A stretch of 32,000 nt of DNA from Methanocaldococcus jannaschii DSM 2661. GTDB lineage: Archaea; AGJL01; Methanococci; Methanococcales; Methanocaldococcaceae. The stretch spans positions 90,001 through 122,000 of the forward strand of contig NC_000909.1 in assembly GCF_000091665.1 (NCBI RefSeq), given 5' to 3'. The translations under genes and the position numbers were made by a program. Below, piece after piece: positions 3,298 through 21,545 of this stretch. The notes under the pieces are model-generated. The model saw only the letters and a list, made by a program, of their open reading frames with translations. It searched no databases and was not told the DNA's origin. Every line of letters starts with the position of its first letter. Position 1 is the first letter of the stretch.

Positions 3298-4823
3298 TTT
3301 TTCCCTCCGAATAATCTTGAGATATCTTCAGATGTTACAATGCCCACAACTCTTCTGTAGTCATCAACCACTGGAACACCAGAAATGTTATATTTACTCA
3401 TTTTTATCGCTACATGGTCAACGGGTTCATCTTCATGAGCAGTTATTACATTTCTTGTCATAATCTCTTCAATTGTCTTTTTGTTTTGAGCAAGAGCTTT
3501 AGCTATATCCCACGATGTAATTATTCCCACTAACTTCCCATGTTCATCAACTATAGGAAGATGGTTTATATTATGCTTTATCAAAATCTTAGCAGCTTCC
3601 ATAATGGATATATTGCTATGAGCAGTTATTGGTGGTTTGCTTAAAATATCCTTAACTAATGTTATTGGTGACTTCATTGGCTTGTTTTCAGCTCTTCCTA
3701 AAGTATCAACCCTCTCAGTTAGTAAAAACTTCCCATCCAAAATCCACTGTTTGAGGGTTTCAGCAACCTCTCTTGCCATCTTATAACTTGAAACAGAACC
3801 AGTTTTTACGGTTTTTTCAACATCTTTCCCATCTATATTTACATTTAATGTTATTTTTCCACTTCTTAACACTTTATAGTTTGTTTTTGCTATTAATGGT
3901 CTATCCCTCCTTGGAAATCCATAATCATAGATTGGCACTTCAATATCTTCATCTCTAATAGCACATCTCTCAGCTATCTTTTCATTTAAAACTGGGATTG
4001 GGATGCCTATACCAACATACAACGTGCTTCCATACCTTGGCATTGTAGCAGCCCTTATAAATTTAGGATTCATCTGTTTTAAATCTCCTTTAACCATTAA
4101 TGTTCCAAATGGTGGGTTATGCTGTGTACCCTCACCAATTACATATCCAATTCCTCCTCCTAAGAAAATCCTTGTTCCAATACCTATGGTATTAAATGAT
4201 TTTGTTTCTGGGTTATAATCATTCTGTAAAGGATTTAACTGTCCAGCGCCTGAATAATGAACGTTGTTATATTCAGGAAGTAGAATGCCCATGTAGGTGT
4301 ATATTTTCTCCTCCCTACTGTTTGTTGCTGCAGCATAAGTTTGATAGCAATTTCTTGGATTAACCATAATTGCCTGATTAACATCATCTAACGTTATTCT
4401 AACATTAACCTCCTTCCTTGGATAGCAGTCAGTTGTATATCCCTCAGCATAAAGCTCAACTTCCTTTCCTCTAACTAAATCCTCTATAACATGAGCTCCT
4501 CCGTAATCAATATCTACATCTGGGTCTTCGTTCGGTTGTGCAGCTCCTATATAAGCATCAACAGCAGCTAAACCTCCATAAGCTTCAACATTGTTTAAAT
4601 AAATCCTTAACATCTTTATTGGCGGGTCTGAATGTCCAAAGTTTATAAATACTCCAGATGAGCACATAGCTCCAAATGTTCCTGTTGTAACAACATCAAC
4701 ATAATCAGCCGCTCTTTTAGCTCCTTCTTCCTCAACTATTTTTATCATCTCTTCCGCTGTTACAACAACAGCCTCTCCTTTTTTAATCTTTTCATTAATC
4801 TCTTTGATTGTTTTCATAATCAT
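3294..4823 (-). CDS. DUF39 (COG1900) + tandem CBS domain protein (L-aspartate semialdehyde sulfurtransferase-type homocysteine biosynthesis)
   Basis: 509 aa. Long N-terminal DUF39-like region followed by a C-terminal CBS pair ([24 protein letters not shown]; [24 protein letters not shown]). I recall this as the MJ0100-type protein. Confidence 0.9.
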
Positions 4824-7160: not shown

Positions 7161-7185
7161 AATAAAATGGTGCCGAGGGAGGGAT
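7161..7185 (-). pseudogene. Displaced copy of the tRNA-Met 3' end (T-loop to CCA plus trailer)
   Basis: tggtgccgagggagggat at 7168-7185 is identical to 7426-7443, the 3' terminus of the intact tRNA-Met. The aataaaa trailer is also shared. Confidence 0.8.
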
Positions 7186-7425
7186 ACAAACGAAACTTTT
7201 AGAAAAAGTTAAACAAAATCTTTCAGATTTTGTAGCCCGAAGCTAACGCTTCGGTTAAATGAAAACTAAAAGAGTTTTCATAGCTGGAAAGCGTAGCTTT
7301 CCATTTCATCAAAATAGGATGCATTGCCTCGCTACGCTCGGCAATGCCTCTTAAAAGAAAGTGGGGTTGCCTCTGGCAACCCTGCTCTGAGTATCCCAAT
7401 AGGGCGAAGCCCTATGGAATAAAAA
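7186..7425. repeat. Modular GC-hairpin chain element, copy B (about 7 hairpins)
   Basis: Hairpins ccgaagc/gcttcgg 7237-7254, gaaaact/agttttc 7261-7279, tggaaagc/gctttcca 7284-7302, gcattgcc/ggcaatgc ~7321-7347, gggttgcc/ggcaaccc 7363-7383, and terminal cccaatagggc-gaa-gccctatgg 7395-7417. Confidence 0.8.
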
Positions 7426-7537
7426 TGGTGCCGAGGGAGGGATTCGAACCCTCGACCTCCCGGTTTCCCAGGACCCAGGCGTAAAGCCTGGGATATCCGT
7501 ATGAGCCGGGCGCTATAACCAGCTAAGCCACCTCGGC
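7426..7537 (-). tRNA. tRNA-Met (CAU, elongator) with a ~35-nt intron after position 37; CCA encoded
   Basis: Minus strand reads GCCGAGG...GCGCCCGGCTCATA[CGGATATCCCAGGCTTTACGCCTGGGTCCTGGGAA]ACCGGGAGGTCGAGGGTTCGAATCCCTCCCTCGGCACCA. Acceptor, anticodon and T stems all pair. The intron carries a 7-bp hairpin. Confidence 0.93.
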
Positions 7538-7628: not shown

Positions 7629-7716
7629 GCGGGGGTCGCCAAGCCAGGTCAAAGGCGCCAGATTGAGGGTCTGGTCCCGTAGGGGTTCGCGGGTTCAAAT
7701 CCCGTCCCCCGCACCA
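7629..7716 (+). tRNA. tRNA-Leu (GAG), long variable arm, CCA encoded
   Basis: GCGGGGGTCGCCAAGCCAGGTCAAAGGCGCCAGATTGAGGGTCTGGTCCCGTAGGGGTTCGCGGGTTCAAATCCCGTCCCCCGCACCA. The cloverleaf pairs correctly. The anticodon loop is TTGAGGG. Confidence 0.93.
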
Positions 7717-7724
7717 AATATTTG

Positions 7725-7802
7725 ATAGCGGGTTAGAAGAGGCATTGCTTCCATTAGGAAGCAATGTATCCTGGGTATAGCAATAGGGCGAAGCCCTATG
7801 CT
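7725..7802. repeat. Modular GC-hairpin element, short copy E (2 hairpins)
   Basis: gcattgcttcc-atta-ggaagcaatgt at 7742-7767 and caatagggcgaagccctatg at 7781-7800. The second hairpin has the same apex as copy B. Confidence 0.7.
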
Positions 7803-7830
7803 TTAAACCCCATCCCCCGCACCAAATATT
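7803..7830 (+). pseudogene. Displaced copy of the tRNA-Leu 3' end (T-loop to CCA plus trailer)
   Basis: aaaccccatcccccgcaccaaatattt versus genuine aaatcccgtcccccgcaccaaatattt (7698-7724), ~25/27 identical. Confidence 0.8.
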
Positions 7831-7957
7831 TTGAGCTTTTTTTAATTTGGACAATATTAGTAACTGCAAAATCTTCTTTTAGAATAATAATAACCCAATA
7901 TAACAAGATTGTTTAAATTGTTTTTAATTAATGTAAATATTTGAATGTTGTGGGATT

Positions 7958-11641: not shown

Positions 11642-11833
11642 TTGGACATTAATTGGGACTGAAAGTCCCAACTTAATGGACGTGTGGTATCCACACCATA
11701 AAGGGGCTACGCCCCTCTTGGGATACTCCCCTAATATTGCTAATTTACACCTCCGAGCATAAGCGAGGAGGTGTTAGGTTTTGATGAACCTTTTACTAAA
11801 AGGTTCATACCAATAGGAGGTTTCCTCCTATGG
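11642..11833. repeat. Modular GC-hairpin chain element, copy C (6 hairpins)
   Basis: ttggacattaatt-gggactgaaagtccc-aacttaatggac 11642-11681, gtgtgg-tat-ccacac 11682-11696, aggggc-tac-gcccct 11702-11717, acacctcc...ggaggtgt 11748-11775, atgaacctttt-act-aaaaggttcat 11783-11809, ccaataggagg-ttt-cctcctatgg 11810-11833. Confidence 0.8.
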
Positions 11834-11836
11834 TAG

Positions 11837-12553
11837 TTAAATGTACATTGGATATTCCTTTCTACTCTTTGACATCATCTTTAAATGTTGCTCTGCCAGT
11901 TCTTTAAGTTTGTTTTCAATAGCTTCAGCCTCTTTGATGAGATTTTCAATATTTACATTTAGATTGAACATTTTATTCAAAACCTCTAATAGATTAGCCC
12001 CCCCTCTTGGGTCTGGTCTAATTCCAACAGTTTCAGCCAACAAACCAATAGCATCAAACCCATTGTCATGGCATTTTATTAATAAATTTCCCCCCATTCC
12101 TCCCACAACTCCAAAATCAAATATTTCAACATAATTTTTTAAATCTTCTATCAACTCTTCTTTATTTGCTATTCCAAATACTTTTTCTGATTTTCCTGCC
12201 ATTATTCCTCCAAGAGAAACAAATAGTTTTGGATTTTTGTTTGAAAATGTTTTAACTATAAACTCCGCCAATCCATTAATCTTAAATGGAGAGATTATTA
12301 TATCTGAAAATAAAATAATAAAATCTTTGTTTGCATACGCTCTCACTGGAGGGTAGGGAATGCCTTTCTCAATAGTTGTGAGTGGAAGGATTCCATCAAC
12401 TTCAAAGTATCCAAAATATTTTAGGTTTAGGTCTTTTATTATTTGAAAACCTGCTATGCTTCCAACTAATCCAGTTCCAGGAAATGCTTCAATAACTATG
12501 GGATTTTCAAACTCTATTTTTGCTTTTTCTACGAACTTCATACTATCCACCAA
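11837..12553 (-). CDS. PAC2 (proteasome assembly chaperone 2-like) family protein
   Basis: 238 aa. The N-terminal IVIEAFPGTGLVGSIAG pattern is typical of the PAC2/COG1938 family. C-terminal coiled-coil tail. Confidence 0.75.
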   Translation of the reverse strand: MVDSMKFVEKAKIEFENPIVIEAFPGTGLVGSIAGFQIIKDLNLKYFGYFEVDGILPLTTIEKGIPYPPVRAYANKDFIILFSDIIISPFKINGLAEFIVKTFSNKNPKLFVSLGGIMAGKSEKVFGIANKEELIEDLKNYVEIFDFGVVGGMGGNLLIKCHDNGFDAIGLLAETVGIRPDPRGGANLLEVLNKMFNLNVNIENLIKEAEAIENKLKELAEQHLKMMSKSRKEYPMYI

Positions 12554-15660: not shown

Positions 15661-16419
15661 TTATAAGAGGTCTAAAATTATATCTAACATTTCTTTGCTA
15701 TTTGCTACAATAATATTCAATCTATCTGTTGCATTTAGGTCAAATTTCAGTTCATCTCCATTTTCATCTGTTATTAAGGCTCCTGCTTCTTTGCAGATTA
15801 TATATGATGAGGCAATATCAACAGCTCTAACCTTAGGTCTTACATCAAAAACAGCATCTAAAGTCCCTTTAGCTACATAACACATTTCTAAACCAAAAGC
15901 TCCAAATATTCTCACTCTTTTAACTTTGTTCCTTAATTTTTCTAAATCTATTTTTTTGCTTGGATAGTAGCTTATAACTATATTATTTGGATTGAAGTCT
16001 TTAACTTTAATCTTTCTTCCGTTTAAATAAGCTCCTTTTCCTTTATATGCCTCATAAAAACTTTTAGTTAAAAATTCGTAGGTTAAGCCATAATATGGCT
16101 CATTATTTTTAAATACTCCAAAGCAGAATGCAAAAAATGGAATTCCATTTATAAAATTAAAAGAACCATCTATTGGGTCAATAACTACAGTCCATTCGCT
16201 ACTGTTATCTATAACACCCAACTCTTCACTCACGATATTAACATTCAGCGATTTTAAATATTTTAAGGCAATATCTTCACTAATTTTGTCAAAAATTTCT
16301 GTTTCATCTCCGCTTGGAGAAGTTCCAACAACGTAAGATTTATCTTTTCTTCCAAAATATGGTAAAATTTCTTTTTCAATCTCTTTTGCAATATTTTTCC
16401 CAATTTCATCCCATTTCAT
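15661..16419 (-). CDS. suhB: Bifunctional inositol-1-monophosphatase / fructose-1,6-bisphosphatase (IMPase family)
   Basis: 252 aa. Motifs WVIDPIDGSFNF and the C-terminal metal-binding DxxA pattern. I recall the MJ0109-type enzyme. Confidence 0.92.
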   Translation of the reverse strand: MKWDEIGKNIAKEIEKEILPYFGRKDKSYVVGTSPSGDETEIFDKISEDIALKYLKSLNVNIVSEELGVIDNSSEWTVVIDPIDGSFNFINGIPFFAFCFGVFKNNEPYYGLTYEFLTKSFYEAYKGKGAYLNGRKIKVKDFNPNNIVISYYPSKKIDLEKLRNKVKRVRIFGAFGLEMCYVAKGTLDAVFDVRPKVRAVDIASSYIICKEAGALITDENGDELKFDLNATDRLNIIVANSKEMLDIILDLL

Positions 16420-16479
16420 TTTCTCATCCTATGCTTTATTTTTAAATTTAAATATACAAAATAAGATAATAGTCAATAT

Positions 16480-16530
16480 CTAAGATTTCTTCATCTCTTC
16501 CTTTATTTTAAGATAGGTTATCGGTATCGC
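16480..16530 (-). pseudogene. Displaced, diverged copy of the last 16 codons plus stop of the PQ-loop gene
   Basis: Minus strand reads AIPITYLKIKEEMKKS*, versus the genuine C-terminus WIPITYLKIRDEMRKS* (16611-16661). 40/51 nt identical with no indels. Differences are silent or conservative (K/R, E/D). Confidence 0.7.
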
Positions 16531-16610
16531 AAGCATATAGAGGAACCTCTATTACTATACTCCGAGTGGGCTTTACTATGTTCAGCCCCACTTTCTATAT
16601 TTAGCTTTCA

Positions 16611-16892
16611 TTAAGATTTTCTCATCTCATCTCTTATTTTCAAATAAGTTATCGGTATCCAAAACATTAAAGACAAAATGTTAAATACTATTATTGGGTA
16701 ATCATTTCTTAATATTCCATATATTAACCAGAGTGTCAGTCCAGTTGTGAATGTTATAACAAAAGCTAATGAGATGTTGCTCATATCTTTCTCCTTCAAA
16801 GACTTTATTAATTGGGGGAGAGATGCAAAGGTTGTTAAAGTTCCAGCAATATAGCCGATAACAGTTATATCAAAGTCCATATTAATCACCAC
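16611..16892 (-). CDS. PQ-loop / SemiSWEET-like small membrane protein (3 predicted TM helices)
   Basis: 93 aa with three hydrophobic segments and an LPQLIKSLKEKD PQ motif after TM1. Confidence 0.7.
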   Translation of the reverse strand: MVINMDFDITVIGYIAGTLTTFASLPQLIKSLKEKDMSNISLAFVITFTTGLTLWLIYGILRNDYPIIVFNILSLMFWIPITYLKIRDEMRKS

Positions 16893-18251: not shown

Positions 18252-18352
18252 ATTTTTATTCCATATTGGTCTGATTTTAATGAAATGTTTATTCTTGGAG
18301 AGCCACACATTATTTGTGATGAGTTTCCATTCCGAATCGGTCTGATTTTAAT
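18252..18352 (-). CRISPR. Mini CRISPR array 2: one canonical repeat, one spacer, one degenerate terminal repeat
   Basis: Repeat gtttccattccgaatcggtctgattttaat at 18323-18352. Degenerate copy atttttattccatattggtctgattttaat at 18252-18281. Spacer of 41 nt. The leader homolog follows directly. Confidence 0.8.
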
Positions 18353-20211: not shown

Positions 20212-20244
20212 ACAATCTAATCGTAGTTGTTGGTGTTTATCTTA
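20212..20244 (-). pseudogene. Displaced, diverged copy of the cdhD 3' end
   Basis: 20212-20244 versus 20338-20370 is 27/33 identical. The fragment reads KINTNNYD*, the gene reads KLNTNNYEWIVSP*. Differences are mostly third-position. Confidence 0.65.
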
Positions 20245-20259
20245 CGTATTTAACTAAGC

Positions 20260-20333
20260 TTGGACATTAATTGGGGCTGATAGCCCCAACTTAATGGACG
20301 GGAGGTATCCCAATAGGAGGTCTCCTCCTATGG
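20260..20333. repeat. Modular GC-hairpin element, copy D (2 hairpins)
   Basis: ttggacattaatt-ggggctgatagcccc-aacttaatggac followed by tatcccaataggagg-tct-cctcctatgg. The last 6 nt overlap the final Pro codon and TAG stop of cdhD. Confidence 0.8.
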
Positions 20334-21545
20334 GCTGACAATCCACTCATAGTTGTTTGTGTTTAGTTTAACCTCTCCTGGCTTGGTTGTTAGAGTTTTT
20401 CCAATCTCTTTCAGTGTTTTAACTGATATTGGATTGAGCATCATGAATAAATCTACTCCACACATCATCATCGTAATTCCAGTAGTTATTTCCCATAATG
20501 GTAATCTATACTCTCTTGGCCCCCATTCAGGATTGTTCATCCATGCCTCTCTTGCTCCAATAGCGTTTGTTGTTCCAGATGACATTGGCATATTAACCAA
20601 CTCATCTCCCTTCAATCCATTTAATCTTAATCTAACCATTGCGTTGATTGAGAACTCAATCCCATAACCTAAAGCACATGTTGTTGGATCCATAACTATT
20701 CTATTTGGGTCCAAACCAGCTTCAACAAGTTTTCTATTTAAATCTCTCGCCATATTTGGGTCCATAATACTCCATGCTAATACGTTGTGGTCATATTTCA
20801 TAGCTGCATCAACTATCTTTTTATAATCCAACTCCAAGTTTGCTGAAGCTAATAAGCATCTATCTCCTTCTGCTACTTCAGCACATGCTTCCAAAACTAA
20901 AGGGTCTTTTTGAGGATTTCCACTACCTCCAATAACAAATGGAACATCAACTGCCTGTAATAAATCTTCCATTAATTTTGCAGCTTCTTTTGGACTTTTA
21001 TCTTTAATTTTTGGGTCTGTGGAGATGTGGTGAATTGTTATCATATCTGCCCCAAATTCTTTAACACACTTCTTTGCCCATTCGCAAGGGTCTTCCATAA
21101 CATCCTGGAAAAACTGCCTAATTGGTTTTGGTAATCCTGGCATTGGTATATCGAATATATCGAAAGTAACAACTGGTGGATTTGGCTGTGGTTCTTCAAA
21201 TCTATATAAAGCTCTCTGTCCCCCAATTTTCACAACTTTTCCTCTTCCTCCTTCTGATTTTGGTTTTCCAAATTGGACTTCTCTTATATATCCAGGATAT
21301 TTTTCAACTGGTGGTTCCCAATCTAACTCTGGGACATCTTTAATTTCTATAATTCCTTCTTCAGCCAATTTTTCTTTTATTGATGGTGTTTGAGGAATAA
21401 CTATTGGAGGGGCTGATGGGATATTTATAATTAATTCATCTGCGGTGATTTTTATATCCTCAATCTCAATTCTACCAACTTTTTCAATGATTTTTATCAA
21501 AGTATTTAAATCCATAACCTCACCCAATCTGTCATTATAAATCAT
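20328..21545 (-). CDS. cdhD: Acetyl-CoA decarbonylase/synthase delta subunit (corrinoid/Fe-S protein small subunit)
   Basis: 405 aa with a pterin-binding-like TIM barrel region (ADMITIHHISTDP...). Paired with cdhE. Confidence 0.92.
   Translation of the reverse strand: MIYNDRLGEVMDLNTLIKIIEKVGRIEIEDIKITADELIINIPSAPPIVIPQTPSIKEKLAEEGIIEIKDVPELDWEPPVEKYPGYIREVQFGKPKSEGGRGKVVKIGGQRALYRFEEPQPNPPVVTFDIFDIPMPGLPKPIRQFFQDVMEDPCEWAKKCVKEFGADMITIHHISTDPKIKDKSPKEAAKLMEDLLQAVDVPFVIGGSGNPQKDPLVLEACAEVAEGDRCLLASANLELDYKKIVDAAMKYDHNVLAWSIMDPNMARDLNRKLVEAGLDPNRIVMDPTTCALGYGIEFSINAMVRLRLNGLKGDELVNMPMSSGTTNAIGAREAWMNNPEWGPREYRLPLWEITTGITMMMCGVDLFMMLNPISVKTLKEIGKTLTTKPGEVKLNTNNYEWIVSP

Follow-up and report, generated by a model that had tools for sequence, protein, structure and literature searches.

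The final 16 codons of MJ0110, the gene of a small sugar transporter (SemiSWEET) in Methanocaldococcus jannaschii DSM 2661, occur a second time just downstream of the gene, on the far side of an 80-nt insert that carries two hairpins. The locus lies in a 32,000-nt stretch of contig NC_000909.1 (positions 90,001 to 122,000 of the forward strand), which is called the window here and to which all unlabeled coordinates refer. We think it probable that the gene end was duplicated by the insertion of a dispersed, noncoding hairpin element accompanied by a long target duplication, and that the arrangement is not the attachment (att) site of an integrase. What sets it apart is chiefly the length of the duplicated target. 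The hairpin element is dispersed and polymorphic among lineages, its copies are flanked by duplications of the local target, and at this junction M. jannaschii holds three copies of the gene end: the live copy A, the displaced copy B, and a third copy C. The mobility of the family is evident from the presence and absence of copies between lineages, cited below by our own labels, because one site is empty in L003 and filled in L004, and Methanocaldococcus sp. 16A (L001) is without the 3′-end insert.

A gene end repeated around a hairpin insert

A preliminary description of this DNA had stated that the gene end at 16611–16661 recurs at 16480–16530 with 40 of 51 positions identical and no indels. 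This was reproduced, and when the 51-nt gene end was compared without gaps along the 610 nt downstream, no placement matched at more than 40 positions (2000 shuffles averaged 26 and never exceeded 31). A repeat search carried the similarity ~5 nt beyond the limit first given, to 16536 and 16667, and paired 16481–16536 with 16612–16667 free of gaps at a spacing of 131 nt, with 80% identity over 56 nt (45/56). On translation, the live end reads W-IPITYLKIRDEMRKS before a TAA stop and the displaced copy reads A-IPITYLKIKEEMKKS before TAG. Both hairpins described for the insert are likewise present, as ATAGAGGaaCCTCTAT at 16537–16552 and GTGGGC...GCCCCAC at ~16565–16592.

The insert is foreign to the gene and does not resemble the coding sequence upstream: gapped alignments to that part of MJ0110 did not outscore dinucleotide shuffles (p = 0.94 local, 0.44 semi-global). 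At an offset of 131 nt, in-register identity drops to background directly past 16536. These two results agree with the earlier view that the displaced fragment is not part of a longer decayed paralog. They also make it very improbable that a plain tandem duplication copied a 131-nt 3′ part of the gene, the first 80 nt of which then decayed. Such an event would account for the exact spacing and for a repeat without indels, but not for an insert that matches a dispersed family, nor for the element versions of other lengths that relatives carry at the same junction.

A weaker third repeat, absent from the preliminary description, lies at 16418–16447, directly ahead of the ATG of the inositol-monophosphatase (IMPase) family gene MJ0109. 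By eye, the M. jannaschii sequence TTTAAAAATAAAGCATAGGATGAGAAAATGAAATGGG agrees at 34 of 37 positions with the stretch of L001 in which the SemiSWEET gene ends and the IMPase gene begins. This copy C probably now provides MJ0109 with its ribosome-binding region. The spacer that separates B from C (16448–16479) may be a decayed older element, and by eye it resembles the spacer between A and B in Methanocaldococcus sp. 28A (L002).

The fold of the whole intergenic region is unremarkable (z = −0.78), and the insert alone gave z = −1.8. The ends of the insert pair weakly (AAGC..ATATAGA with TCTATAT..GCTT), and this pairing is inconsistent across family copies; the window offers no insertion sequence (IS) with which the ends could be compared. 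The features of the locus and the related copies in the window are collected in Table 1.

Table 1. Features of the SemiSWEET/IMPase junction and related element copies (window coordinates)
Feature	Position	Strand	Description
MJ0110, SemiSWEET/PQ-loop gene	16611..16880	-	Open reading frame; ATG at 16880, in-frame GTG upstream at 16892; Pfam PF04193 and PF03083
Copy A, live gene end, gene-proximal direct repeat	16611..16667	-	..MFW IPITYLKIRDEMRKS, stop TAA at 16611-16613
Element E4, the 80-nt insert (hairpin repeat element)	16531..16610	-	In gene orientation: TGAAAGCTAAATATAGAAAG, H1, linker TCGGAGTATAGTA, H2, ATGCTT
Hairpin H1, G+C-rich stem	16565..16592	-	GTGGGGC..GCCCAC; 13 nt from H2
Hairpin H2, family signature ATAG...CTAT	16537..16552	-	ATAGAGG-tt-CCTCTAT; from hairpin search
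Copy B, displaced noncoding gene-end copy, distal direct repeat	16480..16536	-	ATGCTTGCG ATACC.., translated as MLA IPITYLKIKEEMKKS, stop TAG at 16480-16482
Spacer between B and C	16448..16479	-	ATATTGACTATTATCTTATTTTGTATAT..; contains a TATA-like stretch ahead of MJ0109
Copy C, oldest relic of the SemiSWEET end	16420..16447	-	TTTAAAAATAAAGCATAGGATGAGAAAATG; 80% identity with copy A across 30 nt; borders on the start codon of MJ0109
MJ0109, IMPase family gene	15661..16419	-	Open reading frame and Pfam PF00459; next gene, same strand as MJ0110
Family copy E1	7164..7449	+	Element 7192-7421 between repeats 7164-7191 and 7422-7449 (26/28); repeat is the tRNA 3′ end (tRNA at 7429-7537, minus strand)
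Family copy E2	7694..7831	+	Element 7724-7801 between repeats 7694-7723 and 7802-7831 (27/30); repeat is the tRNA-Leu 3′ end plus 8 nt
Family copy E3	20212..20365	+	Element 20240-20337 between repeats 20212-20239 and 20338-20365 (24/28); repeat is the cdhD 3′ end

Kinship of the insert with a dispersed hairpin family

Whether the 80-nt insert recurs in the window depends on how it is sought. An exact search with three mismatches and a blastn search each returned no second copy, but relatives were found through the hairpin signature and through a covariance model. Six perfect ATAG(N3-5)-loop-CTAT hairpins occur in the window, at 1021, 7399, 7783, 11813, 16537, and 20313. All five besides that at 16537 are preceded by (G)TAT(C/A)(C/G)CA and, 13–24 nt further upstream, by a G+C-rich hairpin. 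A hairpin corresponding to H1 occupies the matching position in the copies at 979, 7364, 7746, and 20271, and the G+C hairpin has undergone a compensatory flip between the copies at 979/1021 (GCCCC/GGGGC) and 20271/20313 (GGGGC/GCCCC). The linker of the SemiSWEET insert, GAGTATAGTA, is a variant of (G)GTAT(C/A)(C/G)CA.

A covariance model of the linker and hairpin (R1) was trained on four copies, two from the window and those of L004 and L186, and the whole window was scanned with filters off. The best match outside the training set was the SemiSWEET insert (16531–16568, minus strand), which was recovered at full length with 17 bits and E = 0.014 on a shortened calibration, and which ranked above the copies at 1004, 11797, and 20304. 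A sequence-only hidden Markov model (HMM) detected the left-out elements at the SemiSWEET site of L186 and L006 with E ~2e-4, the latter in opposite orientation. On these grounds, the insert can be regarded as a diverged member of a hairpin-repeat family dispersed in Methanocaldococcus. No family copy was seen within the 6–8-kb loci of M. fervens, M. vulcanius, sp. 16A, and sp. 28A. Rfam 15 matched only tRNAs and CRISPR repeats in the window at gathering score, and its matches over three element copies were at chance level (E of at least 0.97).

Flanking duplications at other family copies

Three further copies in the window, E1 to E3, are enclosed by direct repeats that take in a 3′ gene end, of a tRNA in two cases and of cdhD in the third, and for each of them 0 of 500 shuffles reached the observed repeat score. 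Over its 230 nt, the E1 element is made up of eight hairpins in succession, all perfect or nearly so (DNA fold z = −9.8). When local direct repeats were sought across the window without bias, only CRISPR repeats, a single low-complexity pair, the H2 modules of E1 and E2 as a pair, and three pairs that bracket elements were returned; the SemiSWEET repeat is one of these three.

The cdhD gene (20328–21545, minus strand) differs in where the duplication stops. Its TAG stop is now inside hairpin H2 of E3 (20328–20331), and its live end reads ..NTNNYEWIV-SP(stop), whereas the displaced copy reads NTNNYD(stop)IV-AKA(stop) and retains the original tail. The duplication at this site thus stopped within the open reading frame, with a new tail and stop codon supplied by the element. 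For E3 no orthologous empty site was found, as the flanks were not syntenic in the loci compared.

An empty site is available for a copy at the other end of the SemiSWEET gene. In the metagenome-assembled genome L004, a family copy sits at the SemiSWEET 5′ end between near-identical copies of the ribosome-binding site, the ATG, and the first 11 codons. L003 is the corresponding empty site, and 65 nt of L003 align twice on L004 by BLAST, which places the duplicated length at ~50–65 nt. Because both repeat copies carry L004-specific variants, this case is best read as a duplication of the local target and not as an imported copy.

Altogether, the duplication lengths are ~10, 19, 28, 28, 30, ~50, and 51–56 nt, and, with respect to the gene affected, elements occur in either orientation. 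The shortest belongs to a second family copy in L004 (2401–2529), which lies inside the last repeat of an array of 30-nt CRISPR repeats downstream of secD (GTTAAAATCAGACC, element, AATTCAGACCGTTTCGGTATGGAAAT) and has ~10 nt of that repeat duplicated. In L006, at 296–351, two tandem ATAG..CTAT modules (GGTATACCA-ATAGGAGGG.. and GGATACCA-ATAGGGGC..) stand between direct repeats of ~19 nt (ATTAAAATAAGGATG[G/A]AAA). Cas1-type integration with a ruler set by repeat length, which three duplications of 28–30 nt and the copy in the CRISPR repeat had brought to mind, was set aside in view of lengths of ~10–56 nt. Two miniature CRISPR arrays were also observed in the window: one at 18253–18352, made of a single spacer between two repeats and lying 100 nt downstream of secD, where L004 has its full array, and another at 2299–2532 with three or four repeats.

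Several other observations concern individual copies. The region at 780–1041 has the modular order of 7192–7421 (..TTAAATGAAAACT..AGTTTT..TAGC..TTTCATCAAAAT..H1..H2). The tRNA beside E1 is a 109-nt Rfam match (7429–7537, minus strand) that ARAGORN reports at 7426–7511 as ‘tRNA-Stop, anticodon tta’, probably by misreading a tRNA that has an intron or a long arm. An eIF2-beta-like gene (1045–1476) and a PAC2 gene (11837–12553) both stop 5 nt past a hairpin, within a common GGTA(T/G)TTAAAT (1040–1050 and 11832–11842), and the element may supply the stops of these genes too. At the left edge of the SemiSWEET repeat (16655–16662, minus strand), the target sequence TGGATACC resembles the reverse complement of the family linker motif GGTATCCCA, as does the end of the L004 target beside the hairpin (GGCTATATTGCC). 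These linker-like target edges may represent microhomology at the junctions.

The SemiSWEET/IMPase junction among relatives

The open reading frame at 16611–16880 encodes a product with 100% identity to the SemiSWEET protein MJ_0110 of M. jannaschii. Its setting, in the order SecD, SemiSWEET, IMPase, and pyruvate kinase, is kept in every relative compared. In L001 the SemiSWEET gene ends with ..KIKDEMRK and a TGA located within the ATGA of the IMPase start, free of any insert. The two genes overlap by ~40 nt in M. villosus (L084) and abut in L003 and L004, and among lineages the spacers between them span 10–190 nt. Beyond ..YLKI(K/R)(D/E)E, the C-terminal tail of the SemiSWEET protein varies in length and sequence in almost every lineage, and the remainder is 75%–95% conserved. 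Given these varying tails and spacers, the junction is evolutionarily unstable. Variation within the species cannot be read from the 281-nt region, which is identical in all 11 contigs that are identical to M. jannaschii.

A displaced gene-end copy is present in three other lineages: L186, L002, and L006. In the metagenomic lineage L186, copy A is followed by TCTTAATTAATTAGGGTATAGCA-ATAGGGCaaaGCCCTAT-GCTTGCG and then by ATACCAATAAC..., and in L002 it is followed by a 32-nt spacer ending in ..CTATGCTTGCG and then by the same ATACCAATAAC.... The hairpin ATAGGACtacGTCCTAT precedes the displaced copy of L006. The shorter element versions of these three lineages all are missing H1. The junction CTAT(AT)GCTTGCG|ATACC is identical in M. 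jannaschii, L186, and L002, and this shared sequence argues for a single origin of the event that separated A from B. The repeats of L186 are nearly identical (26/27) and enclose a canonical hairpin, which argues for a younger or independent event in that lineage. The inner stem of H2 varies and yet stays complementary, as AGG/CCT in M. jannaschii, GGC/GCC in L186, and GAC/GTC in L006.

The displaced copy of L002 is itself interrupted by ~45 nt (TGAGCAATCAATGACC..AAACTAAA, at ~4315–4360) and shows a 1-nt frameshift before the IMPase ATG. In L095, an L086-like metagenome contig, unrelated DNA replaces the sequence ahead of the IMPase ribosome-binding site from ~1205 up to where the contig ends (~95 nt beyond the SemiSWEET stop) and is bounded by the inverted repeat TATGAGGGA ... 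TCCCTCATA. This DNA may be a different small element.

A mini-open reading frame runs through copy B at 16483–16536 (minus strand; ATG CTT GCG.., translated as MLAIPITYLKIKEEMKKS and a stop). Its ATG comes from the end of the element, and a Shine–Dalgarno-like AGAGGT lies 8 nt upstream. Selection on B, alone or together with H2, either as a translated 18-codon reading frame of this kind or as a cis element or small RNA controlling MJ0109, would suit the closeness of B to the consensus of live gene ends, the in-frame ATG that the element supplies in M. jannaschii, L186, and L002, and the complementarity of the H2 stem despite its differences in M. jannaschii, L186, and L006. We nevertheless judge it improbable. 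In L002 the reading frame is broken by the 45-nt insertion and H2 is largely lost, L006 is without the ATG and carries the element inverted, and B is absent from many lineages. There is also no Rfam match, and the folding is unremarkable (z = −0.8 and −1.8).

Differences between copies A and B and the integrase alternative

The preliminary description had held that the differences between A and B arose under coding constraint. Over codons 2–16 and the stop, the copies differ at nine nucleotides, which amount to three replacements (R/K, D/E, and R/K) and three silent codons, with a stop retained. In a simulation, nine random substitutions yielded such a coding-like pattern with P ~0.001, so the claim stands for the pair as a whole. 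It is less secure for B itself, for which the corresponding value is an estimate of p ~0.03–0.1 and only two or three changes are private (CTT Leu, GAA Glu). Compared with seven other lineages, AAG>AGA (K>R, codon 10) and TTA>TTG are changes of the live copy A, and ACT/ACC, AGA/AAG at codon 14, and TAA/TAG are differences that vary among lineages. The pattern is thus largely what would be expected from a live copy evolving under constraint.

The same description had attributed the repeat to an incoming element that brought its own version of the gene end. Such an element could have arrived by site-specific integration, by Campbell-type reintegration of a circle from another lineage, or by homologous recombination that imported ‘A + element’, and A and B would then be the orthologous ends of two lineages. 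Parts of that account have held: the insert is foreign and has family copies, tRNA 3′ ends show a similar arrangement, and the A/B differences are nonrandom. Silent and conservative differences at P ~0.001 are indeed what two orthologous ends would display, and A and B are in different states at sites that are variable across lineages (ACT/ACC, AGA/AAG, TAA/TAG). The gene ends of L086 (38/42) and L001 (36/42) resemble B more closely than A does (34/42); A itself matches these ends at 36 and 37 of 42 positions, respectively, and the two copies are about equidistant from the outgroups. Furthermore, the identical junction in M. jannaschii, L186, and L002 fits site specificity, the row of A, B, and C resembles tandem accretion at an att site, and the direct repeats include the 3′ end of the target gene and thereby restore it. 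Archaeal att sites of 40–60 bp at tRNA 3′ ends are documented (PMC8371274).

Other evidence leaves this account unlikely. Only 80 nt separate the repeats, there is no integrase or other mobile-element gene, and the neighbors in M. jannaschii and all relatives are the SecD, IMPase, and pyruvate kinase genes. The collections searched contained no viral, phage, or plasmid likeness: in IMG/VR the SemiSWEET junction pattern gave unrelated matches only and the family motif gave no match bearing the hairpin, and by blastn E1 and E3 were unmatched in plasmids and E3 was unmatched in phages. Family copies occupy many unrelated targets in both orientations, which would be impossible for one integrase acting at one core site. 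Young insertions (L004 against the empty site of L003, and L186) show near-identical repeats with variants of the host lineage, as local duplications do. The displaced cdhD copy keeps its original tail, which an element-borne gene end would not give, and most of the A/B changes can be assigned to the live copy A.

Another way to explain a gene 3′ end repeated nearby as a noncoding copy is a diversity-generating retroelement (DGR)-like pair, with the variable repeat at the gene end and the template repeat downstream. This can hardly be correct, because the mismatches (C/T, T/C, G/T, GA/AG, T/A) are not specific to adenine, no reverse transcriptase reading frame is found among the neighbors, the repeat is only 51 nt long, and the architecture is matched at tRNA ends.

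A proposed origin of the junction

The element sits within the final ~17 codons of MJ0110, and its insertion with a long target duplication would account for the junction as follows. The element would have inserted into an overlap of the SemiSWEET and IMPase genes, and the duplication would have run through the stop codon. Because the duplicated target included this codon, the reading frame of MJ0110 would have stayed whole, with A as the live end and B as a noncoding relic, and MJ0109 would have retained its upstream signals. The presence of C, a third relic lying immediately ahead of the ATG of MJ0109, suggests that the junction was split twice, to give A-element-B-spacer-C. After the duplication, the live copy A would have changed only at silent or conservative positions and B would have changed little.

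The agent of insertion could be a trans-acting enzyme that makes widely staggered cuts, or replication that switches template to a second copy and then returns. Duplication lengths that vary so widely speak against a ruler-type transposase or a Cas1-like integrase and fit either template switching during replication or repair or widely staggered nicking. A broader proposal, which we offer only tentatively, is that hairpin-array elements move by a mechanism undescribed in prokaryotes that duplicates 10–56 nt, that insertions at gene ends regenerate the gene, and that the SemiSWEET/IMPase junction was hit twice, turning an overlapping pair into two separately controlled genes.

Several points weigh against an origin by element insertion with target duplication. 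B matches the live end of another lineage at 38 of 42 positions and A at only 34, which is somewhat unexpected if B has drifted neutrally since a local duplication. This preservation of B leaves room for an imported allele, or for a B that remained live until a second, more recent event. The identical junction in three lineages could mean one old event or site-specific reinsertion. No flanking repeat could be detected at two of the six window copies (1021 and 11813), and a target duplication of ~10–56 nt does not suit any known transposase. The assignment of the insert to the family is also open to challenge: the E = 0.014 of R1 rests on a shortened calibration, a sequence-only HMM of the linker and H2 misses the insert, and its pairwise similarity to single members is marginal (p of 0.01–0.12). 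Finally, the family is most likely that of the palindromic repetitive elements MJRE1–3 described by Suyama, Lathe and Bork in 2005, although this name is provisional.

Relation to known repeat systems

MJREs share several qualities with the elements described here. They are hairpin or palindromic repeats of ~100 nt from the same organism, they reside in extragenic DNA, and some reach into reading frames without destroying them, just as the cdhD stop lies in a hairpin and the SemiSWEET end is regenerated. They are reported to number 141 copies with a total of ~14 kb, some within open reading frames that are not disrupted. Their description reportedly includes no long flanking duplications, no repeated hits at one junction, and no presence or absence across lineages. 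The literature searched contained no description of such flanking duplications, and the novelty of long target duplications is accordingly provisional. There seems to have been little exploration of the long and variable duplications, of the recurrent use of a single gene junction, or of the turnover within the genus.

MITEs (miniature inverted-repeat transposable elements), as well as other small nonautonomous repeats, such as Correia, RUP, Sulfolobus SM, and Rickettsia palindromic elements, are likewise short, noncoding, multicopy, structured, polymorphic among strains, target-duplicating, and tolerated at gene ends or in frame. However, the present family has no consistent terminal inverted repeats and no related transposase identified, it forms strings of one to eight hairpins, and its duplications vary from 10 to 56 nt rather than being fixed at 2–10 bp.

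Integrase att sites of the archaeal SSV, pNOB8, and pT26-2 types, and the remnants known as cis-mobilizable elements (CIMEs), bounded by attL and attR, also have direct repeats of 28–56 nt that take in a tRNA or protein gene at its 3′ end, leave that gene intact, and possibly accrete in tandem, as A, B, and C might have done. In contrast to these, the present inserts are free of integrase genes, measure 80–230 nt, and occupy unrelated targets in both orientations, and some of the duplications end inside a reading frame or sit at a gene 5′ end.

Repetitive extragenic palindromic (REP) sequences and bacterial interspersed mosaic elements (BIMEs), together with REP doublets forming hairpins (REPINs; mobilized by REP-associated tyrosine transposases [RAYTs] of the IS200/IS605 type), are extragenic hairpin repeats that often lie just downstream of genes and in arrays, as here. 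REPs differ in having no target duplication, and no RAYT or TnpA gene was seen here, although the whole genome was not searched. CRISPR spacer integration and casposons resemble the present family in their long flanking duplication, and ~28–30 nt, the length at three sites, is that of the CRISPR repeat of this organism. Unlike the products of those systems, the duplications described here are variable (~10, 19, 28–30, and 50–56 nt), and the inserts are 72–230 nt of structured DNA, not spacer-sized, without casposon-like inverted ends.

Implications

If this interpretation is true, MJRE-type palindromic elements would be active on evolutionary time scales across the genus, and their target duplications would be far longer and more variable than those of any characterized prokaryotic transposon. 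Junction microhomology and pairs of empty and filled sites would then provide a handle on the mechanism of mobilization. The same process would explain tRNA pseudo-fragments, duplicated gene ends, and the hypervariable C-terminal tails of this SemiSWEET protein. For annotation, fragments of this kind would have to be treated as insertion footprints and not as prophage att sites or remnants of paralogs. The SemiSWEET/IMPase junction would furthermore show how overlapping gene pairs can separate without the loss of either gene.

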